The notes under the pieces: model-generated | What the model was told of the DNA's origin: nothing | What the model saw: the letters and a program-made list of their open reading frames with translations, nothing else | The model's database searches: none | Program-made: the position numbers and the translations under genes | Source of the DNA: Flavihumibacter cheonanensis | GTDB lineage: Bacteria; Bacteroidota; Bacteroidia; Chitinophagales; Chitinophagaceae | DNA length: 64,000 nt | Assembly (NCBI RefSeq): GCF_022352215.1 | Contig: NZ_JAKRWF010000003.1 | Span: forward strand, 165,854 to 229,853 | Reading direction: 5' to 3' | Part shown: positions 29,096 through 46,526 of the stretch, one piece after another | Layout: every line of letters begins with the position of its first letter | Position numbering within the stretch: position 1 is the stretch's first letter

Positions 29096-29494
29096 ATGGC
29101 AAATCATTATATAGAACAAATTGAAGCCTTTACCCGGCAGTTGGACTGCAGGATTCTGTATCGAAACGAGCAACAGGGCATACTGAAGATTGATAATCCC
29201 GCAGACGGCATCCACAACCTGATCATCGGTATTGCACCTCCGATCCTGATTATGGAGCAGTTTCTGTTTTCCTTCCAGCAGGACCATTGTGATATGTTCA
29301 AACAACTGCTGCAGAAAAACAGGGATACTATACATGGCGCATTTGTTATAAATGAAGAAGGCAATAAAGTGTTGTTTCGGTATACCATGCAACTGGAGCA
29401 TATAAATTTCAATGAGTTTGAAGGAGCGATCAATTCACTGGGACTTCTGCTCAGTGAATATGCAGACCAAATCATTGATTTTTCAAAGCGGTAG
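29096..29494 (+). CDS. Small cytoplasmic protein resembling the YbjN/YjfI-like (T3SS-chaperone-like fold) family. It is the first gene of the pspA module.
   Basis: It is 132 aa from the internal Met of ORF 28916..29494. The upstream part of that ORF overlaps the regulator gene. The family assignment is from memory of motif pattern only. Confidence 0.4.
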   Translation: MANHYIEQIEAFTRQLDCRILYRNEQQGILKIDNPADGIHNLIIGIAPPILIMEQFLFSFQQDHCDMFKQLLQKNRDTIHGAFVINEEGNKVLFRYTMQLEHINFNEFEGAINSLGLLLSEYADQIIDFSKR

Positions 29495-29529
29495 CAATAA
29501 CTGATTTTATCATATTCAAAACTGTAAAC

Positions 29530-30243: not shown

Positions 30244-30246
30244 GTT

Positions 30247-30927
30247 ATGTCTGATTTTTTTGATCTGCTGTTTCATCCGCTGAGTAATGCTATAATGACG
30301 GTATTAACCGGCATCACTGCTATCTACTGGCTCTTTACTTTTATTGCCGGGGATTTCTTTGGAGACGGGGGAGCAGAGGCAGACATGAATGTACATGGAG
30401 CAGATGTAGATACAGATACCGAATCAGATCTGAGCGATTCCAGTGGCGACAAATCCTTTTTCGATAAGGCCCTGGAATATATCAATATCGGCAAAGTGCC
30501 ATTTATGGTAGTGTATTCTACTTTTAAATTTATCGCCTGGATCATAACTCTGGTTTCTTCTGTAACCCTTGGCCTGGCAGCATGGGGATGGAAATCAGTT
30601 TTTATCCTGCTACCGGTTTTCCTTGTCACTTATTTCATCACCCGATATGCCACCAAACCGTTGGTGAAAGTATACGCTGCAATGGGATATAACGGCGAAG
30701 AAGCGGTAGATCTTATCGGACGAAATGCCATTATGCGTTCAACTATTTCCGGTGAAACCATTGGCGCTGCAGAACTCAAAGTCCAGTCGGATATCATCCG
30801 GATCAATGTAAAAAGCAAAACAGGAGAAGCCCTACTCTATGATGCCCAGGTCATGATTGCCGATGAATCAGCAGATAAAAAATATTATCTAGTTATTCCG
30901 GAAATAAATCTGTCCAATATTGTATAA
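30247..30927 (+). CDS. NfeD/YqiJ-like membrane protein (three TM helices plus a C-terminal OB-fold-like beta domain), a flotillin-associated partner
   Basis: The TM topology, the C-terminal beta-rich segment and its position directly upstream of an SPFH/flotillin gene match the yqiJ-yqiK and nfeD-floT pairing. Confidence 0.6.
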   Translation: MSDFFDLLFHPLSNAIMTVLTGITAIYWLFTFIAGDFFGDGGAEADMNVHGADVDTDTESDLSDSSGDKSFFDKALEYINIGKVPFMVVYSTFKFIAWIITLVSSVTLGLAAWGWKSVFILLPVFLVTYFITRYATKPLVKVYAAMGYNGEEAVDLIGRNAIMRSTISGETIGAAELKVQSDIIRINVKSKTGEALLYDAQVMIADESADKKYYLVIPEINLSNIV

Positions 30928-30986
30928 ACTGGATTCTGCTAGTATATTACCAACCAAACATATAACCTGTAAACCTTTAATCAACT

Positions 30987-33014
30987 ATGGGAGCACTTGG
31001 CGGCATTAGCCTACTGCTGATCGGCGGTATCGTTTTTCTGATTTTCATCGTATTATTTGCATTTGCCACTTTTTACAAAAAAATTCCGCAGGGTAAAGCC
31101 ATTGTGCGTACCGGCGTTGGTGGTGGTAAAGTTGCATTCAACAAAGGAATGTATGTGATTCCCATTTTACATAAAATGGAGATCATGGATATCTCCGTTA
31201 AAAAACTGCAGATCGACCGGATGGAAAACGATGGTCTGATCTGTAAGGATAATATCCGGGCAGACATCAAAGTGGCCTTCTTTGTACGCGTAAATAAAAA
31301 CGTGGACGATGTTCTCAATGTAGCCCAGATTATAGGCACTGAAAGAGCCAGTGATGTGGATACCCTCCGCAATTTATTCGAAGCCAAATTTTCTGAAGCG
31401 CTGAAAACTGTGGGAAAGAAATTCGATTTTATCGAACTCTATGAAGCACGTCGTGAGTTCAGAACAGAAATTCTCAATATCATTGGTACAGATCTGAATG
31501 GGTATATCCTGGACGACTGCGCGATTGATTACCTGGAACAAACAGAAATCTCTTTTTTGAGCCCCCAGAATATCCTTGACTCACAGGGTATCAAAAAAAT
31601 TACGGAGTTAACCGCAGAACAAAACATCAAAGCAAACCTGATCAAGCGGGAAGAAGAAAAAGTAATTAAGAAACAAAACGTGGAAGCAAGGGAAGCAATC
31701 CTTGAGCTGGAACGTCAAATGGCAGAGAAGGAAGAAAAGCAACGCCGCGAAATCGATAATATTAAAGCACGCGAAAATGCGGAGATCATGAAAGTGAGGG
31801 AAGAAGAGCGACTGAAAGCAGAATCGGTGAAAATTAAAACAGAAGAGTCGCTCGCCATACAAGAACAGAACAAACTTCGCCAAATCATAATCGCAGAGAA
31901 AAACAAACTCAGAACCGATGCTGTGGAAACCGAAAGAGTGGAAAAAGACCGGGCACTCGAAGCAACCGAAAGAGAAAAGATCGTAACACTGGCGCAAATT
32001 GAGAAAGAGAAAACAGTGGAAGTGGAACGGAAGAATATTCAGGATGTAATTAAGGAACGGGTTCGCCTGGAAAAGGGCGTAGTGGAGGAACAACAGGGTA
32101 TCAAAGACCTCGAAGCCTTCCGTGAAGTTGAGCGTAATAAAACAGTGGGTATAACAGAAGCGAGTCGGGAAGCCGAAGAAAAACTCATCTTCACCGTAAA
32201 AGCTGCCGAAGCAGATAAGAAAGCTGCCGAGGAAAAAGCCAGACAATTAATCATCGATGCAGAGGCTAAAAAAGAAGCAGCTGTTAAACAGGCAGAAGCC
32301 AGGAAGATTTTGGCGGATGCCCAGGCCAGAGAAGAAGCAACCCTTGGCTTATCTGAAGCAGAAGTTATGATTGCAAAAGCTGAAGCAGCAGAACGCCAGG
32401 GCGCAGTGGATGCAACGGTGATTGAAAAAATTGCAGAAGCTAAACGCAAGGAAGGGTTGACACAGGCGGAAGTAACCAGGGAAAAAGCGCTTGCAGAAGC
32501 AGCAGGAATCCAGGAGAAAGCAGAAGCCATGAAGAAGCTGGATGCGGTTGGTAAGGATCACGAAGAATTCAAACTGCTGCTCCAGAAAGAAAAAGACATC
32601 GCTTTGGCGCAAATTCACATTCAGAAAGATATCGCAGACGCGCAGGCCGATGTATTGGCTGAAGCCCTGCGCACTGCGAAAATCGATATTGTTGGAGGTG
32701 AAACCATGTTCTTCCGGAATATAGTAAACCAGATTTCCAACGCCAAAGGATTTGACCGTCTGATCAATGAAAGTGAACATGCTACGGATATAAAGAAGGC
32801 GCTGATCGGCGATGGCAGCAACAGTGGTGATCTCCTCGAACGTATACGGGAATTTGCCGACAAGTACAATATCTCCACAAATGATATCAAGAACCTGACC
32901 ATATCCAGCCTCATTCTGAAAATGCAACAACAGAGTTCAGACGCCGACCGCCCGATGTTATTAAACCTGGCAAACCTGGCGAGCAGTCTGGGCATTTCTA
33001 ACAAAAAGCTCTAA
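30987..33014 (+). CDS. Flotillin-like SPFH/Band-7 protein (YqiK/FloT-like) with a long E/A/K-rich coiled-coil region
   Basis: It has an N-terminal TM helix, an SPFH domain (KAIVRTGVGGGKVAFNKGMYVIP) and an extended EA-repeat flotillin coiled coil. Confidence 0.9.
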   Translation: MGALGGISLLLIGGIVFLIFIVLFAFATFYKKIPQGKAIVRTGVGGGKVAFNKGMYVIPILHKMEIMDISVKKLQIDRMENDGLICKDNIRADIKVAFFVRVNKNVDDVLNVAQIIGTERASDVDTLRNLFEAKFSEALKTVGKKFDFIELYEARREFRTEILNIIGTDLNGYILDDCAIDYLEQTEISFLSPQNILDSQGIKKITELTAEQNIKANLIKREEEKVIKKQNVEAREAILELERQMAEKEEKQRREIDNIKARENAEIMKVREEERLKAESVKIKTEESLAIQEQNKLRQIIIAEKNKLRTDAVETERVEKDRALEATEREKIVTLAQIEKEKTVEVERKNIQDVIKERVRLEKGVVEEQQGIKDLEAFREVERNKTVGITEASREAEEKLIFTVKAAEADKKAAEEKARQLIIDAEAKKEAAVKQAEARKILADAQAREEATLGLSEAEVMIAKAEAAERQGAVDATVIEKIAEAKRKEGLTQAEVTREKALAEAAGIQEKAEAMKKLDAVGKDHEEFKLLLQKEKDIALAQIHIQKDIADAQADVLAEALRTAKIDIVGGETMFFRNIVNQISNAKGFDRLINESEHATDIKKALIGDGSNSGDLLERIREFADKYNISTNDIKNLTISSLILKMQQQSSDADRPMLLNLANLASSLGISNKKL

Positions 33015-33032
33015 CCGTAAGTGAATGATTGA

Positions 33033-36000
33033 TTGATGGAGGTAAAAGCAGGAATGGATACAAACCGACAGGATGTGCTGGATGCAGGCACATATGAAAT
33101 CATCCGGAACCGTTTGCAGGAACAACGCATTGAATTGTCCGGCAGACTGGCACAATTAAACCAGGCAAGGAAAGAGATTTTCAATTCTTCCGGATTTCAA
33201 TTGATCGCCAACCAACGTATCAGTACGGACAACAATGGCGTGGCCCGGGGCATAACTGCCATCGGTAATACTACCCTCTTCGCCTATAATGTTCACTTTG
33301 GACTTCGGGAGGATATCAAATTATCGGATGTATTCAGCATCTATACTTTCACAGGCGATCACTTTGAGCCTCAGCCATTAAGTATACTGGAAGATCCCGC
33401 ATTTATAACTGATTATACCAACCTTTATAAATACTATCGAGACTCCATTTTTGCCGGATTCCATCAAAAGCAGAATTATCTGTACATGGTATTTCAGACC
33501 AGCAAAAATCCGGATGACCGAAAAGCATTCAAATGGCTGATCCGAAATGGACAGTTGATCTACCAGGACGACCGGAGTATTCACGAGGTCAGAAAAGCAG
33601 CTCAACATGATTTTAAGTGGATCCAGACCGATCTGAGCAACCGTAGGCTGGGTGTACATCCGCATATTTCCATCTTGGATAAAGTGTTTATTGAAGCATT
33701 GAATGGTGATATCACTTTCAAGATTGAAAACAATACAGATACCGGAAAGGGCATATTTTCAGACCCTGTAAATAACCGGGATCAACAATTGGATGATGCC
33801 TTCTATTATTATGCCGACCTGGGTAACCTGATCGCCATAAAGATCAAACCCTACCAGGAAGATTTCCGGGCTTATATCTTTAATGTAAGGACGAAGGAGG
33901 TCACCTCCATACCCAGTTTGGTAGAAGCGGGTATTGTATTGCCGGAGAACCAGGGTATAATTTTTTCGAATGGATATTACCTTCAGAGCGGTGAATACAA
34001 ACTATTTGAAAACGGCCTAACGGATCTTGAATTCATACAAAGTACCGCATCCCCCAACGGTGAAGATTTTCTGTATTGCTTTTACCAGCGGACATCCAAC
34101 ATTTATGTACTGATGTCCTATAACATAATTTCCCGGCAGGTGGAAACTCCGATTATCTGCAATGGATATACAATTTATGATGATGGTAAACTAGTTTATT
34201 TCCGGTCTGAAAATGAAGCGATCCGTCATCACCAGGTACAGATCTGGCAAACACCCTATACCAGTACACTTCAGGAGAATCCGAAACTGGTCAATAATTA
34301 TCTCTACAAAATCGGCAACAAAGACATTGTGGCTGCCATGAGTGAATGCCAGGAAGTATTGCAGTTGATTCAAAAGGAAGACAGTTACGAAGGACTGTAT
34401 GAAGATATCCTGAAAAAATCGTCGGATATCCTGGATGCCTATTTCTGGATCAAAGAGGATGTGGCAGGCAACCTGGCTCAACCACTGACGCAGATCCAGT
34501 CTATCGCCAATACAGCAATAGATGAATTTGCAAAAGTGCAGTCGCAACGCAAGCATGCACGGGAAGTGCTGCTCTCCATGAAGAAAAAAGTGGAGCAACA
34601 GGTGATCGACATCAAGAACGCCTCCATTCAAACACTGGATCAACTGGTACGAATACTGGCGGATACCCGCGGAATGCAGGGCACTGTAATCGATCTGCTT
34701 AATGTTAAGTATGTTGATACAGAAGCTGTGCAACAATTGAGAGAGGTTTTGCAGACCTATAACCAGTCGCTTTCTGAGGATACCGTACAGTTCCTGCTGA
34801 AGGAAGAAGCACTGTTACCCTACGAACAGAAAGTGGCTGACCAGAAGCAGGCAATTGAGCGCATTCAAAAAGCAGTGGATGCGCAACCTGTTTCAGAGGC
34901 CATTCAGGAAATCGCCAAACAACTGGAAATGGTGATTGATATCCTGAACAGCCTTAAAATTGAAGACAGCACACAAACCACGCGGATTATTGAAAAAATC
35001 GCTGTTATTTTCTCTTCCTTAAATGAAGTGAAAGCGGCGTTAACCCGAACTGTTTCCAACCTCAAGACCAGGGAACTTACGGGTGAGTTCCATGCACAGC
35101 TCACCTTACTGGAACAAAGCATGGTAAACTTTCTGGACCTCTCCGATACCCCTGAAAAAGCCGATGAATACTTTACGAAAATCAGCATCCAGGTTGAAGA
35201 ACTGGAGAGTAAGTTCGCCGATTTTGAGGAATTTGTACTGAAGATCGCAGAAAAAAGAGAGGACATCAGTAAAGCGTTTAGTGGTAAAAAAGAAATCCTG
35301 CTAACACAAATCAATAAACGAACCGGCAGCCTGGAACAAATCGGTTTGCGGGTACTAAAGAATATTGAAAATAAGGTTCAGTCGCTCGATAAGAAAGAAA
35401 GCATCTATGCATTTTTTGCATCGGACCTTATGATTGATAAGGTTCGTAACCTGGCTGAAGAATTAAAGACTTTAGGTGATGTAGCCAAGGCCGAAAATTT
35501 GCTGAACCTGATCAAGCTGACCCAGGAAAATGCGCTTCGTCAGCTTCGCGATAAAACTGAACTCTTTACTGGCGGCAACAACATATTATCGCTCGGCAAT
35601 TACAAGTTCATTGTAAACAAGCAGGTACTGGATCTGAATATTGTAAGAAGAAATGAACAACTCTATTACCATTTACTTGGTACCAGTTTTTACAAGGAGA
35701 TTCGGGAGGAAAAACTCTATGCTTATCAGTCTATATGGGACCAGGAGATAATTTCAGAAAATAAGGAAGTATATCGCGCCGAGTTTCTTGCCTATGATGC
35801 TTTCCTGGCGGGTAAACAAGGTGCACAGGATTGGGATGCTGCTGCTTATATCAATGAAAAAACGGAACGTGATTTCGCGGCAGGTTATATTAAAGGGGTA
35901 CATAATACAGATGCTTTAGCAATTTACCAGGCATTGAAAAAGCTACAGGAAGAATTGGGCATCCTTCATTATTCACCAAAGCTGAGAGCCAGTGCGCAAT

Positions 36001-37886
36001 TGTTCTGGATGGAGCTGGATGAGCCGGTGCAGAAACGACTCCGGCAATTAATAACTGCCACCCATTCCATTGAAAAAAGTTTTCCTCAAAGCAGGCAGTT
36101 TGAATTTGCTGAGAATGAAATCGTAAGCACTATTATGAAGACTGAACCGACAATAAATAGAGAAACCGCCGCAGAGATGGCAGTCTATTTGTACCGGGAG
36201 TTTTCAGTAAATAAAGATTTCACAACAAGCCAGCAGGCTTACCAGCTGACAAAATCCTTTAAGGAGTACCTCCAGCAAAACAAACGACTGGAGGCATTTC
36301 ACCAGGAAACCGAAAACCAGGAATTTACCAATCGGGAACGATTCCAATTAATTCAAAGCTGGCTACAGGCTTATCTTCATACTATTCCGGGTGAAACAAC
36401 CAATTGGTATCTGACCGAAGCAGTTGCATTACAGGTATTCAGCCAGCATCCTTTTAAACAAAAAACTGGTGCTGATATAACGGTGCTGGATACACTAAAA
36501 GGAACACATACTGTGATACAGGATGGAAAATATTCCTTGCATTTTCACAGTTTTATTGAAAAACTTCAGCAATACAACCGTACCATAGTACCCGCTTTCA
36601 CAGCTTTCAACCAGGAAAAAGGGAAGCTGATCAAAACCTATCGCAACCAGCTGAAGATTTCAGAGCTGGAACCTAAAGTATTAAGTTCGTTTATTCGTAA
36701 CCGCTTGATCAATGAAGTTTATTTTCCTTTAATCGGGGCGAACCTGGCCAAACAGATCGGGGCTGCAGGTGATGATAAAAGAACCGCAAGGATGGGCATG
36801 CTTTTGCTGGTATCACCTCCAGGGTATGGTAAAACCACATTGATGGAATACCTCGCAAAAACGATGGGACTACATTTCGTGAAAATCAATGGGCCGACTA
36901 TCGGACACAAGATCAGCTCCATTGATCCATTGGAAGCTACCACATCAGGTGCCCGGGAAGAACTTAAAAAAATCAACCTGGCCTTTGAGATGGCCGACAA
37001 TGTGATGCTTTATATTGACGATATCCAGCATTGCAGTGCGGAATTCCTGCAAAAATTCATTTCACTGGCCGATGGACAACGAAAAATGGATGGCATTTTT
37101 GAAGGAGAAAGTAAAACCTACGACCTCCGTGGAAAACGATTCTGTGTAGTAATGGCGGGCAACCCTTATACAGAAAGCGGTGAACAATTCAAAATACCGG
37201 ACATGCTGGCCAACCGGGCAGATGTGTATAATCTCGGAGACGTAATTGGCAATTCAGATTCCTTATTCCAGCTGAGCCTGATTGAAAACTCCGTAGCCGA
37301 AAACAGTTACCTGCAGAAAATCACGAATAAAAGTTTTACGGACCTCTACAAACTGATTCAATACCTGGAGGACGGAGCAGAAACCATACCTGAACTGGAG
37401 GGGAATCACAGCCAGCAGGATTTGGAAGATGCGATGAAAGTACTGAAACACATGCTTCGCATACGCAATATCGTTATACAAGTCAATCAGCAATACATAG
37501 CCAGTGCTGCCATGAAAGACGCCTACCGAACGGAACCGGCATTCAAACTGCAGGGATCCTATCGCAATATGAACAAGCTGGCAGGAAGGGTGGTACCATT
37601 GATGAATGAGGAGGAGATAAGAGACCTGATCCGTGCTCATTATGAAGGAGAATCACAAACCCTCACTTCGGACGCAGAAGCCAATCTGTTAAAACTGAAA
37701 GAAATCGCTGGACTGCTTACTGAAGAAGAGGAAACCCGCTGGAAAGAGATTCAATCTATCTTCAGGAAAAACAATCGTTTTGGGGGAATGGCCGGCCAGG
37801 ACAGCACGGGTCTATTTCTTCAGCAAATGAGTGCTTTTAATGAGCAACTCGAAGCTATCGCGGATGCACTACGAAATAAAAATTGA
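33033..37886 (+). CDS. Giant (1617 aa) protein with a C-terminal Lon-like AAA+ ATPase module and no protease domain. The N-terminal ~1150 aa are beta-rich then alpha/coiled-coil and uncharacterised.
   Basis: It has Walker A LLLVSPPGYGKTTLMEYLAK, Walker B VMLYIDDIQHC, sensor-1 CVVMAGNP and the arginine region KIPDMLANRADVYNL, which resembles Lon NIPAPLLDRMEVIRL. There is no Ser-Lys protease motif. There is an 18-bp gap after the flotillin gene. Confidence 0.7.
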   Translation: MMEVKAGMDTNRQDVLDAGTYEIIRNRLQEQRIELSGRLAQLNQARKEIFNSSGFQLIANQRISTDNNGVARGITAIGNTTLFAYNVHFGLREDIKLSDVFSIYTFTGDHFEPQPLSILEDPAFITDYTNLYKYYRDSIFAGFHQKQNYLYMVFQTSKNPDDRKAFKWLIRNGQLIYQDDRSIHEVRKAAQHDFKWIQTDLSNRRLGVHPHISILDKVFIEALNGDITFKIENNTDTGKGIFSDPVNNRDQQLDDAFYYYADLGNLIAIKIKPYQEDFRAYIFNVRTKEVTSIPSLVEAGIVLPENQGIIFSNGYYLQSGEYKLFENGLTDLEFIQSTASPNGEDFLYCFYQRTSNIYVLMSYNIISRQVETPIICNGYTIYDDGKLVYFRSENEAIRHHQVQIWQTPYTSTLQENPKLVNNYLYKIGNKDIVAAMSECQEVLQLIQKEDSYEGLYEDILKKSSDILDAYFWIKEDVAGNLAQPLTQIQSIANTAIDEFAKVQSQRKHAREVLLSMKKKVEQQVIDIKNASIQTLDQLVRILADTRGMQGTVIDLLNVKYVDTEAVQQLREVLQTYNQSLSEDTVQFLLKEEALLPYEQKVADQKQAIERIQKAVDAQPVSEAIQEIAKQLEMVIDILNSLKIEDSTQTTRIIEKIAVIFSSLNEVKAALTRTVSNLKTRELTGEFHAQLTLLEQSMVNFLDLSDTPEKADEYFTKISIQVEELESKFADFEEFVLKIAEKREDISKAFSGKKEILLTQINKRTGSLEQIGLRVLKNIENKVQSLDKKESIYAFFASDLMIDKVRNLAEELKTLGDVAKAENLLNLIKLTQENALRQLRDKTELFTGGNNILSLGNYKFIVNKQVLDLNIVRRNEQLYYHLLGTSFYKEIREEKLYAYQSIWDQEIISENKEVYRAEFLAYDAFLAGKQGAQDWDAAAYINEKTERDFAAGYIKGVHNTDALAIYQALKKLQEELGILHYSPKLRASAQLFWMELDEPVQKRLRQLITATHSIEKSFPQSRQFEFAENEIVSTIMKTEPTINRETAAEMAVYLYREFSVNKDFTTSQQAYQLTKSFKEYLQQNKRLEAFHQETENQEFTNRERFQLIQSWLQAYLHTIPGETTNWYLTEAVALQVFSQHPFKQKTGADITVLDTLKGTHTVIQDGKYSLHFHSFIEKLQQYNRTIVPAFTAFNQEKGKLIKTYRNQLKISELEPKVLSSFIRNRLINEVYFPLIGANLAKQIGAAGDDKRTARMGMLLLVSPPGYGKTTLMEYLAKTMGLHFVKINGPTIGHKISSIDPLEATTSGAREELKKINLAFEMADNVMLYIDDIQHCSAEFLQKFISLADGQRKMDGIFEGESKTYDLRGKRFCVVMAGNPYTESGEQFKIPDMLANRADVYNLGDVIGNSDSLFQLSLIENSVAENSYLQKITNKSFTDLYKLIQYLEDGAETIPELEGNHSQQDLEDAMKVLKHMLRIRNIVIQVNQQYIASAAMKDAYRTEPAFKLQGSYRNMNKLAGRVVPLMNEEEIRDLIRAHYEGESQTLTSDAEANLLKLKEIAGLLTEEEETRWKEIQSIFRKNNRFGGMAGQDSTGLFLQQMSAFNEQLEAIADALRNKN

Positions 37887-37978
37887 GCAGGTTTTGAAAT
37901 AATCACAATTTAACCTGACAAATATCAGGTTCTCATTAAATTAGGGTAGTGTAATTTCAGGTAATAAAATTAACCATC

Positions 37979-38803
37979 ATGAACGCTATCCTGGTTGCTA
38001 CCGATTTTTCGAATCCTAGTCGCGGTGCCGCCGCTTATGCTGCAGCCCTTGCCAAATTAAATGGCGCAACTCTCACTTTACTGCATGCCTATCTATTACC
38101 CACACCTGTAAGCGAAGTTCCCTATGTGATGGTTTCCGTGGAAGAATTGCAGAAAGACAATGAGAAACTGGTGAAGGAAATGGCGGAGGGACTGGAAAAC
38201 CAATATGACATCAAGGTTCAAACGCTGGTGACGATTGGACTTCCGGCGGATGAAGTTGTATACCAGGCAACTGAAATCGGAGCCGATCTGGTGGTAACGG
38301 GGATGCGTGGAGTAACGAATACCCTTGACAAACTGATTGGAAGCACCACAGCAGCCATTATGAGGAAGTCTACCGTACCAGTGCTGGTAGTACCAGAGCA
38401 ATCGGTTTACGCACCCTGGAAGCAGGTGGTATACGCTACTGATTTCAGCTATACGATGAATTTGCGTTGCTTGAAAATGCTTAAGGTTCTATCAGGAAAT
38501 CAGCCTGATATGCATATGAAAATCGTTTATGTACAAAGACCGGGTGAAATTATGTCAGCCGAACAGATAGCAGGCAAGGTACGGCTGGATCCCATGTTGG
38601 AAACAATACCCCATAGTTATCTCGACCTGGAACATGTATCGGTAGAAGAATCCCTCAAACAATACCTGCACGACCATCCAACGGACGTGCTGGTAATGGT
38701 TGCTCATAAACACAGTTGGTGGGAACGCCTGTTCAGCGGAAGTCATACCCGTGAAATGGTGTACCAGTCGGAAATTCCTTTGTTGGTTCTTCAGGATAAA
38801 TAG
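37979..38803 (+). CDS. Universal stress protein (tandem UspA domains)
   Basis: It is 274 aa with two Usp repeats (MNAILVATDFS and a second domain with VVYATDFS). Confidence 0.85.
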   Translation: MNAILVATDFSNPSRGAAAYAAALAKLNGATLTLLHAYLLPTPVSEVPYVMVSVEELQKDNEKLVKEMAEGLENQYDIKVQTLVTIGLPADEVVYQATEIGADLVVTGMRGVTNTLDKLIGSTTAAIMRKSTVPVLVVPEQSVYAPWKQVVYATDFSYTMNLRCLKMLKVLSGNQPDMHMKIVYVQRPGEIMSAEQIAGKVRLDPMLETIPHSYLDLEHVSVEESLKQYLHDHPTDVLVMVAHKHSWWERLFSGSHTREMVYQSEIPLLVLQDK

Positions 38804-38898
38804 GACTTGTCAATTGCCAATTGCTTCTTACCTTTGCCCCCCATTTTAAGGCAAGCAAAACTGCTTTTGCCCATTTGTATCAACAAAAAACACCATTT

Positions 38899-40278
38899 AT
38901 GGCAACCGTAACGAGGGAAAATATTGGCCAGTTGAACGACAAGATTACTGTGAAACTGTCAAAAGAAGACTACCTGCCCTCCTTCGAGAAAGCACTCAAA
39001 AATTATAGCAAGCAGGCAAATATCCCCGGATTCCGGAAAGGAATGGTTCCGGCCGGCCTGATTCGCAAAATGCACGGTCAGTCGGTATTTACTGATGAGG
39101 TATTGCGCACGGTAGAAAAGCAACTGAGTGATTTCATGGTAAATGAAAAGCTCGAAATTTTCGCTCAACCACTTCCCCTGCCGGAGAACGACAGTGCTAA
39201 CCTGGACCATATGTCTCCTTCAGAGTACTCCTTCGCGTTTGAAGTTGGCCTGAAGCCGGAAATCAGAGTTGCCGACCTCAAAGCTGCCAAATTGCCCTAT
39301 TACAAGATCACTGTTTCTGAAGAAATGCTGGACGAGGAAACCAATCGCCTGCAACTTCGGAATGGAAATATGACCGAGCCAGAACTGGTAGATAATGAAG
39401 AAAATGTGCTGAACCTGAGCTTCCAGGAACTGGACGAAAATGGCGCCGTGAAAGAAGATGGCGCCAAGAAAGATAACTCTGTCCTGGTTAAATATTTCGC
39501 ACCTGCCTTCCGTAGCCAGCTGATGGGTAAGAAAAAAGACGATGTTTTTCAACTGACCCTTAGTGAAGCATTCGAAGAGAAGGAAAGAGAATGGATCCTG
39601 AGTGACCTGGGCCTCTCCAAAGAAGATCCTGCTGCCAGTGGAAAAAAATTCCAGGCTACCATTACCAAAGTAGGGCTGGTTGAAAAAGCTCCTTTGGATG
39701 AGAATCTTTTCAAAGCCATTTTCCCGGGAAAAGAAATTGCTGATGAAGCCGGTTTCCGCGCAGCACTGAAAGAAGATATTGAATTACAACTGGATAATCA
39801 GAGCCGAAACCAATTGTACGATAGCATCTACCATTACCTGATTGACCAGACCCAGATCGAGTTTCCGGAATCCTTCCTGAAGCGTTGGATGCAGCAGGGT
39901 GGGGAGCAGCCCAAAACGGCAGAACAGGCGGAAAAAGAATATCCTTCTTTCGCTAACTCCCTGAAATGGACCCTGATTGTAGATCAGCTGGTAAAAGACA
40001 ATCAAATCGAAGTAAACCAGGACGATCTGCGTGGTTTTGCCAAAGCACAACTGTTTTCCTATATGGGTAACATGAATATGGGACAACTTGACATTGAGCA
40101 ACCCTGGGTGAATGATTATGTAGAACGAATGATGAAAGATCGCAAATTCGTGGAAGACAGCTATCACCGCATCCAGACCGACAAAATTTTCAATGTGGCA
40201 GAAAACCTGGTGACAAGAGATGAAAAGCCGATCAGCCTGGAAGATTTCCAGAAAATGCAGGCGGAGCATCACCACTAG
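38899..40278 (+). CDS. tig: Trigger factor
   Basis: The start is taken at the internal MATVTRENIGQLNDKITVKL of ORF 38821. It has the ribosome-binding motif GFRKGMVP, and tig-clpP-clpX synteny is conserved. Confidence 0.9.
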   Translation: MATVTRENIGQLNDKITVKLSKEDYLPSFEKALKNYSKQANIPGFRKGMVPAGLIRKMHGQSVFTDEVLRTVEKQLSDFMVNEKLEIFAQPLPLPENDSANLDHMSPSEYSFAFEVGLKPEIRVADLKAAKLPYYKITVSEEMLDEETNRLQLRNGNMTEPELVDNEENVLNLSFQELDENGAVKEDGAKKDNSVLVKYFAPAFRSQLMGKKKDDVFQLTLSEAFEEKEREWILSDLGLSKEDPAASGKKFQATITKVGLVEKAPLDENLFKAIFPGKEIADEAGFRAALKEDIELQLDNQSRNQLYDSIYHYLIDQTQIEFPESFLKRWMQQGGEQPKTAEQAEKEYPSFANSLKWTLIVDQLVKDNQIEVNQDDLRGFAKAQLFSYMGNMNMGQLDIEQPWVNDYVERMMKDRKFVEDSYHRIQTDKIFNVAENLVTRDEKPISLEDFQKMQAEHHH

Positions 40279-40282
40279 GAGG

Positions 40283-40360
40283 TGAGACGTGAGATGTGAG
40301 ACGTGAAAAGTGAAAGGTGAAAGAAGGGTGAAAAGTGAGACGTGAAATGTGAGAAGGGTG
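40283..40360. repeat. Degenerate heptamer array of the GTGARAN family (GTGAGAC, GTGAGAT, GTGAAAA, GTGAAAG and others, about 11 units), related to the perfect array at 28118
   Basis: The plus strand is purine-rich with 7-nt periodicity and lies in the intergenic region after tig. Confidence 0.85.
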
Positions 40361-40383
40361 TATGGAGGATAAATGTCCTGAGA

Positions 40384-40413
40384 ATATAATAGACCGTGTG
40401 GTTGCCCCACACG
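40384..40413 (+). terminator. Rho-independent terminator for tig
   Basis: The stem is CCGTGTGG/CCACACGG with loop TTGC followed by a T-run. Confidence 0.65.
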
Positions 40414-40439
40414 GTTTTTCTTTTCCCAGCCAGAGCGGT

Positions 40440-40500
40440 ATTTGGGGTTTCCCTTCTTCCATTCCTCCATCTTCCATTCCCCCCTCTTCCCTACCCCCTC
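40440..40500. repeat. Pyrimidine-only tract. On the minus strand it is a GGA-rich purine repeat that shares GGAATGGAAGATGGA with the locus at 62469.
   Basis: It is about 60 nt of almost pure C/T on the plus strand. An exact 15-mer is shared with 62473-62490 in the opposite orientation. Confidence 0.8.
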
Positions 40501-40609
40501 TTCCATACCTTTTTGTCAGCCCGACTGCCGTTTTTTGCAATGATTTTCAATTGGAAAGGTATTTGCACCAGTCCATTGCCTTATTTTTATCAAAACAACG
40601 AGGATTATT

Positions 40610-41296
40610 ATGAAGTCTGAATTTGAAAAATATGCGGTCAAGCACCGGGGCATCTCGAGTCTGACCCTGCACGATTACCAGAAATATCAGGTAACCAACC
40701 TGACACCGAATATTATTGAAGAGCGTCCGATGAACATTGCGGTGATGGATGTGTACAGCCGTTTGATGATGGACCGCATCATTTTCCTGGGATACCCCAT
40801 TAATGATGAAGTGGCCAATATTGTGACAGCGCAGCTTCTTTTCCTGGAGAGCACTGATCGCACCCGGGATGTGCAGATGTATATTAACTGTCCGGGTGGC
40901 AGTGTGTACGCCGGATTGGGCATGTACGACACGATGCAGTTCATCACACCCGATATTGCGACCATTTGTACAGGAATGGCAGCATCCATGGGTGCTGTGC
41001 TAATGTGTGCAGGTACGAAGGGCAAAAGAACAGCGCTGAAGCATAGCCGTATTATGATGCACCAACCGTCCGGGGCAATTGGCGGGCAGGCATCTGACAT
41101 CGAGATTACAGTAAATGAGATCCGTAAGCTTAAAAAGGAATTATACGAAATCATCTCACATCATACCGGCAAAGGCGTAAAGCAGGTGGAAAAAGACTGT
41201 GATCGCGATTACTGGCTGACTGCGATGGAATCGAAAGAGTACGGACTGGTGGATGAAGTATTACTGGTAAATCCCAGAAAGGAAAATAAAGACTAA
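40610..41296 (+). CDS. clpP: ATP-dependent Clp protease proteolytic subunit (ClpP paralogue 1)
   Basis: The catalytic triad context is present: GMAASMGA (Ser), IMMHQPSG (His) and DRDYW (Asp). The canonical N-terminal axial region is present. Confidence 0.9.
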   Translation: MKSEFEKYAVKHRGISSLTLHDYQKYQVTNLTPNIIEERPMNIAVMDVYSRLMMDRIIFLGYPINDEVANIVTAQLLFLESTDRTRDVQMYINCPGGSVYAGLGMYDTMQFITPDIATICTGMAASMGAVLMCAGTKGKRTALKHSRIMMHQPSGAIGGQASDIEITVNEIRKLKKELYEIISHHTGKGVKQVEKDCDRDYWLTAMESKEYGLVDEVLLVNPRKENKD

Positions 41297-41314
41297 TCTT
41301 AAACTATTGATGCT

Positions 41315-41941
41315 ATGAATAGGACTAATTATTTCTCCTACCGGATGGACGAGGAGGAAGAAGAAAAACAGCGGGAAGACAAACGCGATGAGCTGATGAT
41401 GCTTAATAAGCGACTTGAAAAATACTTTTTCGATGAGCGGGCCGTTTATTTATGGGGACCGGTGGATGATAAATCTGCCAAAGAAGTGGTAACCAAAATA
41501 CTACTCCTGGATGCCGATAAAAAAGAAGAGATCAAGTTCTTTATTAATAGTCCGGGTGGTGTAGTAACCAGTGGTATGGTTATTTACGATACCATGAAGA
41601 TGGTTAAAAGTCCGATCAGCACCATTTGTATGGGATTGGCAGCCTCCATGGGTTCCATCCTGCTGAGTGGTGGCGAAAAGGGCAGAAGGTTCATTTACCC
41701 TCATGGTGAAGTGATGATCCACCAGCCCAGTCTGGGTGGTTACATGCAGGGAGTGAGTGCGGATCTGGAAATCCAGGCCAAACAGACCAAGAGAGTAAAG
41801 GAAATGGGAGCTAAGATACTGGCGGAGAATTGTGGCAAAACGGTTGCCCAGATCATGAAGGATTTTGACCGCGATTACTGGATGGATGCCAAAGAAGCGA
41901 TTGATTATGGCATCGTAGATGGCATCATGGAAAAACTCTAA
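41315..41941 (+). CDS. Second ClpP-family subunit (ClpP paralogue 2) with a divergent, acidic N-terminus
   Basis: It has GLAASMGS (Ser), VMIHQPS (His) and DRDYWM (Asp). The N-terminal 45 aa ([15 protein letters not shown]) are unlike canonical ClpP. Confidence 0.8.
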
Positions 41942-41979
41942 GGAAAGGTTACCTTTGCGGGAAGCAAGCAACAGAGCGT

Positions 41980-43212
41980 ATGGCAAAAAATACATTACAT
42001 TGTTCATTTTGTGGCCGCAGTCGGGATGAAGTAAAAATCCTGATTGCTGGGCAGGATGGGCATATCTGCGAGAACTGCGTGGAACACGCCAGGGAAATTA
42101 TCGAACAGGAATTATTAACCCGTACCGATGGCGCAGGATCCGGATTCAAGTTAACGGTTAAGAAGCCGATCGAAATCAAGCGGTTTCTGGATGAATATAT
42201 AATCGGACAGGACGAGGCTAAAAAAGTACTTGCAGTAGCTGTTTATAATCACTACAAAAGACTCCAGCAGAAACCCACCGAAAATGAGGTGGATATTGAA
42301 AAGAGCAATATTGTAATGGTTGGTGAAACGGGAACGGGTAAAACCCTGCTTGCTAAAACCATCGCCAAATTATTGAACGTTCCATTTGCTATTGTTGATG
42401 CAACTGTATTTACAGAAGCAGGTTATGTGGGTGAAGATGTTGAAAGCATCCTGACCCGCTTATTGCAGGTATGTAATTATGATGTAACGGCAGCGGAAAG
42501 AGGGATTGTATATATTGACGAGATCGATAAGGTTGCAAGAAAAGGGGATAATCCTTCCATCACACGCGATGTAAGTGGTGAGGGTGTTCAGCAGGGATTG
42601 TTGAAGCTGCTGGAAGGAACCGATGTATTGGTTCCACCACAAGGTGGCCGTAAACATCCGGAACAGAAACTGATTAAGATCAATACGCAAAACATTCTCT
42701 TCATCTGCGGCGGTGCATTTGATGGCGTAGACAAGCTGATTGCCCGTAGGGTAAACACGAACGCTATTGGTTTCAATGTCAACAAAGACCAACAGGAAAC
42801 TGCCCGTAAGAACCTGTTGCAATTTGTAAACGCGCAGGATCTGAAACATTTTGGATTGATCCCTGAATTACTGGGACGTTTACCCGTTGTAACTTTCCTG
42901 AATCCGCTGGATGCAGAAACCTTACGCAGCATTTTAACCGAACCGAAAAATTCGTTGATCAAGCAGTACAAAAAACTGTTTGAAATTGAAGGAATAGAAC
43001 TTACCATCGATAATGACGTACTGGATTTCATGGTAGCCAAAGCGATGGAGTACAAACTTGGCGCCAGAGGATTGCGTTCCATCTGTGAAAGCATTCTAAC
43101 CGATGCGATGTTTGAACTACCCTCCAGCAAGGAAACCAAATTCCACCTCAACCTGGAATATGCGGAGAATAAATTTGATAAGAGTAAAATGAGCCTGCTG
43201 AAAGTGGCGTAA
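41980..43212 (+). CDS. clpX: ATP-dependent Clp protease ATP-binding subunit ClpX
   Basis: It has the C4 zinc finger (CSFCGR...CENC), Walker A GETGTGKT and Walker B YIDEIDK. Confidence 0.95.
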
Positions 43213-43222
43213 CGAATTCACC

Positions 43223-43402
43223 ATGAAAGAACTGATAGATAAATTAATGGCGGAAGGGTTAACGGAAGACCAGGCTTACAAGGCGGTAGAGATCGTAAAG
43301 AATTTTGCAAAAGACAAGTTTCCGATTTTCGGAGGAGCCATCGATCGTTTATTCGATAAGTATGGTCCAAAGGAAAAACCGGAAGACGATTTTCTCGATT
43401 AA
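43223..43402 (+). CDS. Small hypothetical protein (59 aa, below the ORF-track length cut-off) immediately after clpX
   Basis: I found this ORF MKELIDKLMAEGLTEDQAYKAVEIVKNFAKDKFPIFGGAIDRLFDKYGPKEKPEDDFLD by hand. It is followed by a terminator hairpin. Confidence 0.35.
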   Translation: MKELIDKLMAEGLTEDQAYKAVEIVKNFAKDKFPIFGGAIDRLFDKYGPKEKPEDDFLD

Positions 43403-43427
43403 AAGTTCAGTGAGTTCAACTAATACA

Positions 43428-43458
43428 GGGTGCAGCATTCAGCTTGCACCCTTTTTTT
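43428..43458 (+). terminator. Rho-independent terminator after clpX and the small ORF
   Basis: The stem is GGGTGCAGC...GCTTGCACCC followed by T7. Confidence 0.6.
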
Positions 43459-43472
43459 ATGTAGGATTTCAT

Positions 43473-43554
43473 TTCCAATATGTCAATTATTTGTTACAAT
43501 ATGTAAAATATTATTTACATTGAGTAAAATATTCTTTACATTAGATCAAATTAG
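43473..43554. promoter_or_regulatory. Four tandem operator-like repeats at 21-bp periodicity (TTACAATATGTAAAATATT, TTACATTGAGTAAAATATT, TTACATTAGATCAAATTAG and a degenerate upstream copy). Each contains a TTACA-N3-TGTAA palindrome.
   Basis: I aligned these repeats by eye. They lie immediately upstream of the membrane-protein and HTH gene pair. Confidence 0.5.
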
Positions 43555-43559
43555 TTATT

Positions 43560-44036
43560 ATGAAACAGCAACCCTTACTTCCCTATCGATTTAAAAAGAT
43601 TGGCTGGCTGCTCTTTATACCTTTTGCCTTTGCGGGCATTTACCTGCATATCACGGATTATGAACCAAATTGGATCACCACCAAAGTTTTTGCCATTTAT
43701 AACGATAGTTTGCTTTCAGATAAGAAATGGTTTTCCATTGTTGAAACGAATATCACCAGCACTTTAATCGGGATCGGATTTTTAATGGGCTGTTTATTAA
43801 TTGCATTTTCCCGAGAGAAAGTCGAAGATGAGTTTATAGCAGGATTAAGGCTGTCTTCGCTGCAATGGGCGGTACTGGTCAATTATTCGTTGCTGCTTTT
43901 CTGTTTTTTATTCATTTACGGATTTGCATTCCTGAATGTGCTCATCTACAATGTATTCACCGTCTTGCTTATTTTTATTGGTCGCTTTAATTACCTCCTG
44001 TTCAAATCCAGAAAAATGAATGCAGATGAAAAATAA
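43560..44036 (+). CDS. Small multi-pass membrane protein (DUF2975-like), partner of the downstream XRE HTH
   Basis: It has four predicted TM helices. It overlaps the start of a short HTH gene, a recurrent membrane-protein plus YozG-like-HTH pairing. Confidence 0.5.
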   Translation: MKQQPLLPYRFKKIGWLLFIPFAFAGIYLHITDYEPNWITTKVFAIYNDSLLSDKKWFSIVETNITSTLIGIGFLMGCLLIAFSREKVEDEFIAGLRLSSLQWAVLVNYSLLLFCFLFIYGFAFLNVLIYNVFTVLLIFIGRFNYLLFKSRKMNADEK

Positions 44037-44229
44037 CCTGAAAGTTGAACGCGCCATTCATGGATTAACGCAGGAGGACCTTGCCAAAAAAATAGGTGTA
44101 AGCCGGCAAACCATCAATGCCATGGAAGCCAATAAGTATGTCCCGTCTACCGTGCTTGCATTAAGACTTGCAAGAGTATTTGGTAAGCAGGTGGAAGATC
44201 TTTTCCAGTTGGACGAAAGCGACGAGTGA
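44020..44229 (+). CDS. Short XRE-family HTH transcriptional regulator (YozG-like; the start may be Met3 at 44026)
   Basis: LTQEDLAKKIGVSRQTINAMEANKYVPSTVLALRLARVF is a canonical HTH_XRE. Confidence 0.8.
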   Translation: MQMKNNLKVERAIHGLTQEDLAKKIGVSRQTINAMEANKYVPSTVLALRLARVFGKQVEDLFQLDESDE

Positions 44230-44262
44230 TTCTCACGTCTGACGTTTCACTTCTCACCACCT
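44230..44262. repeat. Four GTGARAC-family heptamers in reverse orientation (the reverse complement reads GTGAGAA GTGAAAC GTCAGAC GTGAGAA), between convergent genes
   Basis: This is the same heptamer family as the arrays at 28118 and 40283. Confidence 0.7.
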
Positions 44263-45395
44263 ATCGCTTCTCTCGCAATCACAATCTTCTGAATCTCCGA
44301 AGTACCCTCCCCTATTGTACACAATTTGCTGTCGCGATAAAATTTCTCAACCGGAAAATCCTTCGTATATCCGTATCCACCGAAAATTTGTACCGCATCG
44401 GTTGCCACACGTACAGCTACTTCACTGGCATAATACTTCGCCATTGCAGCTTCTTTGGTTACTTTCTGGCCGCGGTTCTTGAGATCGGCAGCCTGGTTGG
44501 TCAGTAATTCAGCAGCAGCTATTTCAGTGGCCATATCAGCCAGCTTGAAAGAAATGCCCTGGAAATTGGAAATGGGCTGATCAAACTGGTGGCGTTCCTT
44601 AGAATATGCAACAGCCGCATCAAAAGCACCTTTTGCAATACCAAGGGACAGGGCCGCAATGGAAATCCGTCCACCATCCAACACTTTCATCGCCTGTTTG
44701 AACCCGTCGCCTACTTCACCAAGCCGGTTAGCATCAGGAATACGACAGTTATCAAATATCATTTCCGCAGTTTCACTCGCACGCATACCCAGTTTATTCT
44801 CTTTTTTGCCGCCGGTAAATCCAGAGGTACCACGCTCCACAATGAAAGCAGTTGCGTTGTTACGAGTCCGGGGCTCCCCGGTTCTAGCCACAACTACGGC
44901 AACATCACCGGATATCCCATGAGTGATCCAGTTTTTGGTTCCATTCAGTACCCACTCATCTCCCTCCTTCACTGCTGTGGTACGCATATTGCCAGCATCA
45001 CTACCAGTATTTGCTTCTGTTAACCCCCAGGCTCCAATCCATTCGGCGGTTGCCAGTTTGGGAAGGAAGCGCTGCTTCTGTTCTTCGTTCCCGAAGGTTA
45101 AAATATGCCCCGTACAAAGTGAGTTATGAGCAGCCAAACTTAAACCCACAGAACCGCAAACCCGGGCGATTTCCGAAATAATTGCCACATACTCAAAATA
45201 ACTAAGCCCGGCTCCCCCATACTGCTCAGGTACCAGTACACCCATGAGGCCCAATTGCCCCATGTCCTTAAATACCTGGAGTGGAAACTCCTGCGACTCA
45301 TCCCATTTCATCACATTGGGTAATATATGCTGGCGGGCAAATTCCCGGGCCGTTTGCGCAACCTGTTCAGTTAATTCCTGGCGTTCAAAATTCAT
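44247..45395 (-). CDS. Acyl-CoA dehydrogenase
   Basis: It is 382 aa with ACAD N-terminal, middle and C-terminal domain motifs, including GGYGY..DFP. Confidence 0.9.
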   Translation of the reverse strand: MNFERQELTEQVAQTAREFARQHILPNVMKWDESQEFPLQVFKDMGQLGLMGVLVPEQYGGAGLSYFEYVAIISEIARVCGSVGLSLAAHNSLCTGHILTFGNEEQKQRFLPKLATAEWIGAWGLTEANTGSDAGNMRTTAVKEGDEWVLNGTKNWITHGISGDVAVVVARTGEPRTRNNATAFIVERGTSGFTGGKKENKLGMRASETAEMIFDNCRIPDANRLGEVGDGFKQAMKVLDGGRISIAALSLGIAKGAFDAAVAYSKERHQFDQPISNFQGISFKLADMATEIAAAELLTNQAADLKNRGQKVTKEAAMAKYYASEVAVRVATDAVQIFGGYGYTKDFPVEKFYRDSKLCTIGEGTSEIQKIVIAREAIGGEK

Positions 45396-45470
45396 AGAGA
45401 ATCAGCTTGTTGTTCTTAGTTCATGAATAACGCAAACTAAGTCTATTTCTGCTAAACTAACAAGTGTTAG

Positions 45471-46526
45471 TTATTTAAATTCACAATATGGTCCTAATTT
45501 CTTCAACAAGTTAGTATCGACCAGGTGAATTTTGCCCAGATCGCTCATTTCCCGAAAGGCCCCGTTGCTATTTCTGTACTGAACAATTGCCTGCGCCAGT
45601 TTCCACCGGATATACGGATGCCGGGCCATTTCCTCCATGGTTGCAGCATTGGGATTCAGTTTTCGAACGGCAACACCATCCAGCTCCAGTTGTGGCAACA
45701 GTTGCTGGAAGACCGAATCAGCCAATCCATACACTTCTTTAATCTGTTCGACCCTGACAAAACCTCCCAAAGCATTTCTATAACTCAGGATCCGACCCGA
45801 TAATTTTGGACCAATCCCCGGCAGGGCCAGCCAGTCGAGACTGTCTGCCTGGTTAATGCGAATCATCTTTGATTTGAAGCCGCCAAGTTTCCTGTTTCCG
45901 TACTCAGTAGAATTAAAACGGCTGTCAACTTTATCCAATACCCGTTGAGATGAAGGATCCTGGTTACCACCTCCAAATGAATTGGTGACAGGTATTGCCA
46001 CGCCAGTTCCAGATTCCAGCCTCACCATTGGTATCAACCGGTCAGCCAACTGTTTCGGCATTCCATAAATCCGATATAAATCTTCTCCCGATCGAAACTT
46101 CCCTCCTTTCTCCCGGTATTTAAGAATGGTTCCAACAGTTTTAGGAGGCACGCCCAACTTTTGCCAATCCAACTCAGTAGCAAGATTCGGATTAAAAGGA
46201 AATAACGCTCCGGAAAATGGCCGACCCTTTTCAAACGATCGCTCATAGGCAGAGGAAGCAATTCCTTCCTGGGTTGAAAATTCCTTACGATCAAACAAAC
46301 TACCTCGCTGCCGTAAAAGATTTACAGTATCAGCTCCCGACTTTTCCAACAAACGGGCAATCAGACTATCAGGTACCGCTACCGGAGCCGGAGGAGCTGC
46401 AGGCCAATAATAGGGTACCACTTTAATAGCCAGCATAACAGCCAGCAAAATCAGTATTCCGATCCGTTCATTTTTGGAAAAATGAAGATATTCCATGACC
46501 CACGTTTTCCATCCCTTCTTTTTCAT
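45471..46526 (-). CDS. Helix-hairpin-helix repeat protein (ComEA-like DNA-binding domains) with an N-terminal TM anchor
   Basis: There are three HhH-type repeats, including LPGIGPKLSGRILSYR. Confidence 0.65.
   Translation of the reverse strand: MKKKGWKTWVMEYLHFSKNERIGILILLAVMLAIKVVPYYWPAAPPAPVAVPDSLIARLLEKSGADTVNLLRQRGSLFDRKEFSTQEGIASSAYERSFEKGRPFSGALFPFNPNLATELDWQKLGVPPKTVGTILKYREKGGKFRSGEDLYRIYGMPKQLADRLIPMVRLESGTGVAIPVTNSFGGGNQDPSSQRVLDKVDSRFNSTEYGNRKLGGFKSKMIRINQADSLDWLALPGIGPKLSGRILSYRNALGGFVRVEQIKEVYGLADSVFQQLLPQLELDGVAVRKLNPNAATMEEMARHPYIRWKLAQAIVQYRNSNGAFREMSDLGKIHLVDTNLLKKLGPYCEFK

Follow-up and report, generated by a model that had tools for sequence, protein, structure and literature searches.

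GTGARAN heptamer arrays in a Flavihumibacter cheonanensis genome region are probably slippage-driven microsatellites

Short purine-rich heptamers of the form GTGARAN recur in a 64,000-nucleotide stretch of the Flavihumibacter cheonanensis genome (contig NZ_JAKRWF010000003.1, positions 165,854 to 229,853; the whole stretch is hereafter called the window), and the question they raise is whether they form a signal peculiar to this genome or belong to a known kind of repeat. The window matches without difference a part of contig BAAGQR010000009.1 of assembly GCA_054783375.1, and homologues of its trigger factor assign it to Flavihumibacter (Chitinophagaceae, Bacteroidota). An earlier note, made from the letters alone, had taken them for a genome-specific family of dispersed repeats, with protein binding, punctuation of transcription or replication, and recombination as possible roles. 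Tandem Repeats Finder (TRF) and a hexamer search agree on three head-to-tail arrays in the window, here called A, B and C (Table 1). With a probability of roughly 0.8 we regard them as heptanucleotide simple sequence repeats (SSRs) of the microsatellite or variable-number tandem repeat (VNTR) type, generated by replication slippage and tolerated in transcribed, untranslated spacers.

The arrays stand out clearly from the background of the window. GTGARA hexamers occur 96 times, compared with 70±9 expected from dinucleotide-preserving shuffles, and 25 of the 96 lie inside the three arrays, in a strict +7 register over ~190 nt in which ~0.2 would be expected; the claim that the arrays are non-random and of one motif family is thereby confirmed. 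Outside the arrays 71 hexamers are left, equal to the expected 70±9, and the isolated copies upstream of pheT (8492, 8546 and 8557) and at the end of copA (58463), which had been counted as members of the family, are therefore at chance level and were removed from it. The 13-mer repeats described upstream of pheT turned out to be a separate feature, a 14-nt exact direct repeat, ACTGTTTCACGCAT, at 8488-8501 and 8553-8566 in a spacer rich in DnaA boxes. Three GTGARA hexamers spaced 7-8 nt apart also lie inside the dnaB coding sequence (6759-6779, - strand), in sense orientation (GGTGAGAGTGTGAAAGGTGAAAC), in frame and without stops; they probably represent a chance cluster.

Array A is the most regular of the three: TRF assigns it a period of 7 (register GACGTGA), 12.3 copies, 100% matches and a score of 172 over 28117-28202. 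Its 3′ end stops 3 nt short of the mature tRNA-Leu. The upstream element TACATTTG, which we take to match the Bacteroidota -7 promoter box TAnnTTTG, would direct transcription of the tRNA-Leu precursor, and array A would then make up nearly the whole of its 5′ leader. RNA of the type (GACGUGA)n is self-complementary via ACGU and folds into a ladder of 4-bp helices with 3x3 loops between them; the fold of leader plus tRNA has a z of -2.1 relative to shuffled sequence. Self-pairing via ACGU was considered as a general cause of expansion and rejected, as GTGAAAA arrays expand equally without self-complementarity.

Array B begins 3 nt past the tig stop codon and holds ten GTGARA-containing heptamers in 7-nt register (GTGAGAC GTGAGAT GTGAGAC GTGAAAA GTGAAAG GTGAAAG aagg GTGAAAA GTGAGAC GTGAAAT GTGAGAA), interrupted by a single 4-nt insertion after 40323; TRF reports it with period 7/14 at 40282-40356. 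The hairpin that ends the tig transcript is the second-best terminator-like site in 27900-45500, and relatives keep a hairpin there. Array C (TRF: period 7, 44231-44257) overlaps the 3′ end of the acyl-CoA dehydrogenase gene, including its final codons; the stop codon of that gene is the TGA (44247-44249) inside unit 2. The array ends 1 nt from the stop (44227-44229) of a convergent helix-turn-helix (HTH) gene. The degenerate array after tig and the four units in reverse orientation beside the dehydrogenase gene, both reported in the earlier note, are thus real, and so is the statement that the arrays are intergenic or at gene ends and purine-rich on one strand. This purine-rich strand is the sense strand in all three, on the +, + and - strands for A, B and C, respectively. 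It carries TGA in every unit, so that stops occur in all three frames within 21 nt, and the antisense strand is stop-free. An independent metagenome assembly (ENA; L002) contains array B in a form identical to that of the window and shows one single-nucleotide polymorphism inside array C.

Orthologous loci were retrieved via the trigger factor, the neighbouring large ATPase and the tRNA sequence. In the window the tRNA-Leu leader holds 12 units. L140, which matches the window almost exactly in the flanks, has 7, a relative of 94% identity (L124-126) has 4, L128/L143 have 12 of another type, GTGAAAA, and L130, L132, L134 and L136 have 0. The promoter block CTACATTTGCA is invariant across five aligned relatives, array-bearing or not, and the tRNA is invariant as well. 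A search with a tRNA 44-mer returned nine loci, among them the 7-unit allele L140; a promoter 20-mer used to look for population alleles in metagenomes gave no matches. Turnover is equally evident after tig: the 94%-identity relative has a perfect GTGAAAG array, with all four contigs breaking 28-30 nt past the stop, L128 a decayed A-rich 7-periodic tract, L131 and L134 different purine-rich 7-periodic units, L130 a vestige and L132 nothing. Purine-rich 7-periodic tracts are found at the tig 3′ untranslated region (UTR) in 7 of 8 Flavihumibacter-group genomes. Array C is confined to the window's lineage: at this site no array is present in any of the five relatives examined, which also lack the adjacent gene pair encoding a 158-aa protein and the HTH protein.

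Turnover of copy number and unit sequence between conserved flanks is the behaviour of a VNTR or microsatellite and not of a conserved site. Tandem structure, clustering beyond composition and copy-number variation with conserved flanks, three of the features by which heptanucleotide SSRs are recognized, are present. Judging from the turnover pattern, we propose that the arrays would expand, contract and homogenize through slipped-strand mispairing during DNA replication and would persist where the DNA is transcribed but untranslated, so that shifts in length would do little harm. Array A would lie within a 5′ leader that RNase P removes from the tRNA-Leu precursor, and array B would be accommodated between the tig stop codon and the intrinsic terminator. 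The arrays would, on this view, lack a sequence-specific function.

Table 1. Arrays and neighbouring features, in coordinates of the window.
Feature	Position	Strand	Description
Array A	28117-28203	+	12 perfect GTGAGAC units, directly 5′ of tRNA-Leu
Array B	40282-40355	+	~10 degenerate GTGARAN units, tig 3′ UTR, sense orientation
Array C	44230-44257	-	GTGAGAA GTGAAAC GTCAGAC GTGAGAA, sense to acyl-CoA dehydrogenase gene
TACATTTG promoter box	28096-28103	+	upstream of array A; putative box for tRNA-Leu precursor
tRNA-Leu (anticodon TAG)	28206-28288	+	ARAGORN; Rfam RF00005, 55 bits
Terminator-like intrinsic hairpin	28293-28321	+	3′ of tRNA-Leu; terminator scan
tig (trigger factor)	38899-40278	+	stop codon TAG 40276-40278
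Intrinsic terminator hairpin	40391-40417	+	end of tig transcript, downstream of array B; 11 pairs + T run
Purine-rich low-complexity tract (CT-rich on +)	40448-40514	-	67 nt, period ~14-15; between tig terminator and clpP promoter
Purine-rich tract, GGGAGGAT-type	58474-58523	+	period 8/15; directly after copA stop, sense
Purine-rich tract GGAGGAATGGAAGATGGAAAC... GGGAGAC GGGAGGC AGGAGAC	62465-62516	+	divergent spacer upstream of Cpn10-like gene
dnaB	6493-8076	-	
dnaB-pheT spacer	8077-8652		576 nt; A/T runs and ACTGTTTCACGCAT repeat
DnaA-box-like 9-mer TTATCCACA	8219		
DnaA-box-like 9-mer TTATCCACG	8240		
DnaA-box-like 9-mer ATATACACA	8261		
DnaA-box-like 9-mer TTATTCACA	8302		
DnaA-box-like 9-mer TTGTTCACA	8316	-	
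Six-gene block	28324-37886		between tRNA-Leu and Usp gene
21-nt AT-rich tandem repeat	43476-43542		upstream of 158-aa open reading frame
158-aa open reading frame and 69-aa HTH_3 gene	43560-44229		overlapping

The motif is not confined to this genome. A degenerate pattern of four consecutive GTGARAN units was scanned against one genome per species (species representatives); by our own arithmetic its 44 bits of specificity against 1.2e12 positions leave a chance expectation of ~0.07 matches. It was found in at least 119 stretches of other genomes from many phyla, with arrays of up to 43 units among the matches listed. The listed matches in Bacteroidota come from Saprospiraceae, Chitinophagales, Prevotella and Flavobacteriia, and the others from Gemmatimonadota, Acidobacteriota, Verrucomicrobiota, Nitrospirota, Chloroflexota, Proteobacteria and further groups. 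Occurring as it does in Flavihumibacter relatives and in many phyla, the motif is neither genome-specific, as had been supposed, nor lineage-specific, which comparison with close relatives had been meant to decide. The same loci (~0.84 Mb, among the matches listed) contain 101 further period-7 arrays with other motifs. Where the unit is GTGAGAG or GTGAAAG, arrays in other genomes spell (G)AGGTGA every 7 nt.

Among the matches listed, to which all counts in this paragraph refer, the arrays show a pronounced polarity. Positions relative to genes were taken from crude calls of open reading frames (ORFs), with the arrays masked because antisense ORFs run through their stop-free strand. Within 40 nt of a gene 3′ end, 61 arrays are in sense and 8 in antisense orientation, with a median gap of 4-9 nt between array and stop; loci with a GC content below 45% gave 20 sense against 2 antisense. 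Period-7 arrays of other units display a weaker tendency of the same kind (33 against 16). [quoted passage not shown] Where an array has a reverse-complement partner nearby, the partner is downstream 25 times and upstream once; whichever strand is read, the purine arm thus leads. No enrichment of terminator-like hairpins is seen downstream of the arrays (7 downstream, 4 upstream), and the two flanks show no difference in minimum free energy (MFE); a general rule that such arrays precede intrinsic terminators was discarded on these grounds. Adjacency to tRNA genes was likewise discarded as a general rule: the 119 listed loci contain 2 array-tRNA pairs within 300 nt, both on opposite strands. 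The polarity itself is real. It may reflect a purine loading common to sense strands, a selective disadvantage of stop-free, pyrimidine-rich RNA behind stop codons, or seeding of arrays from the A-rich and T-rich flanks of terminators. In the window, GC and AT skew follow gene direction, and sense strands are thus purine-rich in general.

The GTGARAN arrays are best read as members of an already described class of heptanucleotide repeats and not as a genome-specific signal. Heptamers are the most abundant class of long SSRs in most prokaryotic genomes, and polymerase slippage on a contact of ~7 nt has been proposed as their cause, according to Mrázek, Guo & Shah 2007 as summarized in later work (PMC4679880, PMC4692102). 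Like the long SSRs with units of 5-11 nt in those summaries, the window arrays are head-to-tail, mostly intergenic and longer than composition predicts; they also share the differences in length and sequence from one close relative to the next and the scattered occurrence over phyla. They differ from the cases described there in that one array sits in a pre-tRNA leader. Neither the GTGARAN unit nor a Flavihumibacter host was found in the heptamer-repeat literature searched, and queries with the motif strings returned unrelated papers.

Close counterparts are the intergenic heptamers GGGAATC in Xanthomonas and GGGGA(C/T)T in Nostoc described by Rehm et al. 2015 (PMC4692102). These lie much nearer to the 5′ neighbouring ORF and, where they follow a gene, on its coding strand and 0-50 nt from or overlapping the stop codon, at sites that are conserved between close relatives while length and sequence vary (PMC4692102). 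The GTGARAN arrays share with them the intergenic location, the nearness to the 5′ ORF, a kept position with shifting length and sequence, paired inverted copies and the stop-proximal coding-strand polarity, which is seen for arrays B and C and, in other genomes, in the listed count of 61 against 8. They differ in two respects. The G-runs of the Rehm heptamers fold into G-quadruplexes, and no GGG is present in GTGAGAC, GTGAAAA or GTGAAAG, which leaves GTGARAN without G-quadruplex potential; further, the Rehm units contain no stop codon and each GTGARAN unit contains TGA. Array-bearing spacers in Xanthomonas were found to be the more stable ones (Rehm et al., PMC4692102).

A second counterpart is TAACTGA, whose direct repeats MacGregor 2015 reported from marine Beggiatoaceae, some Cyanobacteria and five Bacteroidetes (PMC4679880). 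These too are intergenic, stop-containing heptamers that in some Bacteroidetes build up to arrays of as many as 43 copies, share spacers with other heptamers, are missing from the orthologous spacers of close relatives and break assemblies. They differ, however, in being mostly present in 2-6 copies in forward orientation a few nucleotides upstream of start codons; the window arrays have another unit and follow stops or precede a tRNA, and do not belong to that network. The short tandemly repeated repetitive (STRR) heptamers of heterocystous cyanobacteria (Calothrix PCC 7601), as far as PMC4692102 recounts them, are likewise tandem heptanucleotides at many intergenic sites; in that account they serve as lineage fingerprints, unlike the GTGARAN class, which spans many phyla, and unit and phylum differ, the unit here being GTGARAN and the host a member of Bacteroidota. 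REP/BIME and REPIN elements resemble the arrays in being extragenic, often directly after gene 3′ ends, and often present as inverted pairs capable of hairpin formation. They are, however, imperfect palindromes of 20-40 nt moved by RAYT transposases, whereas GTGARAN is a 7-nt tandem unit that is not palindromic except for ACGT at GTGAGAC junctions; none of the window arrays has a counterpart of its own sequence in inverted orientation, and the called genes of the window include nothing RAYT-like. The contiguous 7-mers, without spacers, also differ from the 23-47 nt repeats and unique spacers of similar length of a CRISPR array.

Several observations weigh against slippage as the full explanation. 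Neutral slippage alone does not predict the bias towards sense orientation and abutting stops (61 against 8 among the matches listed); the arrays recur at the same two spacers in several species, and one motif class, GTGA followed by purines, recurs at three loci. Besides slippage, a filter of a selective or mutational kind is at work. Moreover, array B has not changed in length between L002 and the window, and the cross-phylum statistics are based on crude ORF calls, 3-4 of ten sampled upstream 'genes' being spurious, mostly in high-GC DNA.

It is conceivable, albeit unlikely, that the arrays are selected elements of the transcript, in sense orientation after stop codons or in the tRNA leader, with slippage doing no more than tune their length. 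In this role they might act in one of three ways: as a three-frame stop trap or run-off zone for ribosomes that have read through or shifted frame; as a spacer, rich in G and A and poor in C, that withstands loading of Rho or attack by RNase or insulates a terminator or tRNA fold; or as a scaffold offering many binding sites to a single-strand RNA-binding protein (S1, Csp, Hfq or CsrA-like), comparable to the speculation on TAACTGA. The sense orientation of 3/3 window arrays, the listed 61 against 8 at gene 3′ ends with their gap of 4-9 nt, the TGA in each unit opposite a stop-free strand and the recurrence of purine-rich 7-periodic tracts after tig in 7/8 Flavihumibacter-group genomes are consistent with such a role. 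So is the excess of purine-arm-first inverted pairs (25 against 1 among the matches listed), which neutral slippage alone leaves unexplained, and the embedding of the tig stop codon in AGGAGGTGA (40273-40287), a sequence that we take to be a perfect 9-nt complement of the 16S rRNA 3′ tail (the anti-Shine-Dalgarno). Post-transcriptional regulators have in fact been proposed by MacGregor for another heptamer (PMC4679880).

The turnover of the arrays argues against selection at the RNA level: close relatives have 12, 7, 4 or 0 units and use GTGAGAC or GTGAAAA, L132 does without both arrays and L130 has only a vestige. Three units would suffice to place a stop in every frame, yet the arrays run to 12-43 units. 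The listed loci are not enriched in terminator hairpins downstream and have flanks without a difference in MFE, the tig spacer is no more stably folded than shuffles of it (z of -0.8), and Rfam at its gathering threshold recognized in the spacers only the tRNA. If the RNA-level interpretation were nonetheless true, which we doubt, purine-rich, stop-bearing heptamer arrays would constitute a selected class across phyla that acts on the transcript.

That the arrays work as DNA, namely as iteron-like protein-binding sites, as barriers to replication or transcription, or as recombination hot spots, is highly improbable. In favour of this, there are several copies in phase, array C coincides with the junction of the lineage-specific two-gene insertion (158 aa + HTH), a six-gene block is inserted beside tRNA-Leu, and a role in rearrangement was suggested by MacGregor for long heptamer arrays in Bacteroidetes (PMC4679880). 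However, a period of 7 bp places successive sites on different faces of the helix, and the sequence of the unit differs between relatives. Iterons are helix-phased repeats of ~17-22 bp with a cognate binder nearby; the arrays have neither property and lie outside the cluster of DnaA boxes at 8219-8324. No dedicated DNA-binding or recombinase gene is found beside them, PADLOC and Pfam returning generic HTH matches only. The insertion beside tRNA-Leu is on the 3′ side of the tRNA and the array on the 5′ side, and the two occur independently, L132 having the block without the array and L124 the array without the block. Finally, orientation tracks transcription (+, +, -) and not one replication strand. 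A strand bias with respect to replication, for which the earlier note had suggested a test, is not seen in the window, where GC and AT skew follow gene direction and give no clear replichore signal. The proposals of protein binding, punctuation and recombination are thus not supported, copy number and unit sequence shifting between conserved flanks and orientation following transcription.

Equally little speaks for contingency loci, in which slippage would toggle a neighbouring gene (phase variation); we find this scarcely credible. The perfect 12-unit array A does lie between a promoter and its gene, and a change of one unit in array C would alter the C-terminal tail of the dehydrogenase. Phase-variable loci, however, carry the SSR in the 5′ part of an ORF or between the promoter hexamers, and none of the three arrays is so placed: array A follows the -7 box and leaves promoter spacing unchanged, and its product is a tRNA without a reading frame, array B is past the stop codon and array C is at the extreme 3′ end. 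The neighbours, moreover, are the housekeeping genes tRNA-Leu, tig and acyl-CoA dehydrogenase and not surface or restriction-modification genes. Chance clustering or an assembly artefact can practically be dismissed, for although perfect repeats are often given a wrong length by short-read assemblers, and the ends of several Logan contigs fall within arrays, 25 hexamers stand in strict 7-nt phase over ~190 nt where ~0.2 are expected, array B is identical in the independent ENA assembly L002, and array A is present in independent assemblies of relatives with differing copy numbers.

With slippage-driven microsatellites as the preferred explanation, the arrays should not be annotated as regulatory sites or lineage markers but as ordinary variable microsatellites. 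They account for the breaks of short-read contigs after tig and before tRNA-Leu, and together with the related tracts for spurious stop-free antisense ORFs, such as 39784-40506(-) in the window and a 203-aa ORF called over the CT-rich tract of L128. The tRNA-Leu leader with its 12, 7 or 4 units could be used as a VNTR for strain typing. In addition, a different, TGA-bearing motif shows here, in many phyla, the stop-codon polarity earlier reported for G-rich heptamers of Xanthomonas and Nostoc.

Other low-complexity tracts lie close to the arrays. The CT-rich tract between tig and clpP forms the pyrimidine partner in a purine-terminator-pyrimidine layout. Pairing of the purine array with this tract around the tig terminator appears in the MFE structure but is not claimed here, the z being -0.8 relative to shuffles. 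In L128 the tract extends over ~560 nt (19730-20270); L131 and L133 also have it, and L130, L132 and L134 do not. To our knowledge, bacteria seldom have polypurine/polypyrimidine tracts so long. At two loci the terminators themselves are built of short tandem units and inverted copies: in L138 (~2570-2632) the hairpin after tRNA-Leu consists of GAGGTTTAAAGTTTAAAGTTTGA...TCAAAACTTTAAACTTTAAACCTC, and in L131 (14365-14470) GGGAGACGGGAA and TTCCCGTCTCCC lie on either side of the tig terminator. The tract after copA is similar in composition to the arrays, yet it is not a GTGARAN array. The tract upstream of the Cpn10-like gene shares GGAGGAATGGAAGA with the - strand of 40450-40488, and the two form the longest inverted pair of the window (39 nt, 77% complementary). 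Both the post-copA tract and that at 62465 are of the GGAGG/GGAAG type and rich in Shine-Dalgarno-like GGAGG. Bacteroidota largely do without Shine-Dalgarno-led initiation.

The spacer between dnaB and pheT is a candidate for oriC or for a DnaA-controlled dnaB promoter. Its five DnaA-box-like 9-mers fall within 105 nt; such 9-mers number 60 in the window, with 60 expected, and their clustering alone is notable.

The block beside tRNA-Leu looks like an island next to a tRNA gene. Its six genes encode an HTH_3 protein (225 aa), a CesT/YbjN-like protein, PspA/IM30, a 226-aa protein, a 675-aa protein without a Pfam match and a 1616-aa 'DNA repair ATPase' with DUF3686 and AAA domains. The block is absent from L124, L130 and L134 and present, whole or in part, in L128, L131, L132 and L133. 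PADLOC, run on this block and on the 158-aa/HTH pair, gave generic HTH matches only and no known defence system. The 158-aa ORF of that pair has no Pfam match, and the pair, preceded by a 21-nt AT-rich tandem repeat, is found in the window's lineage only, being absent from L130-L134.

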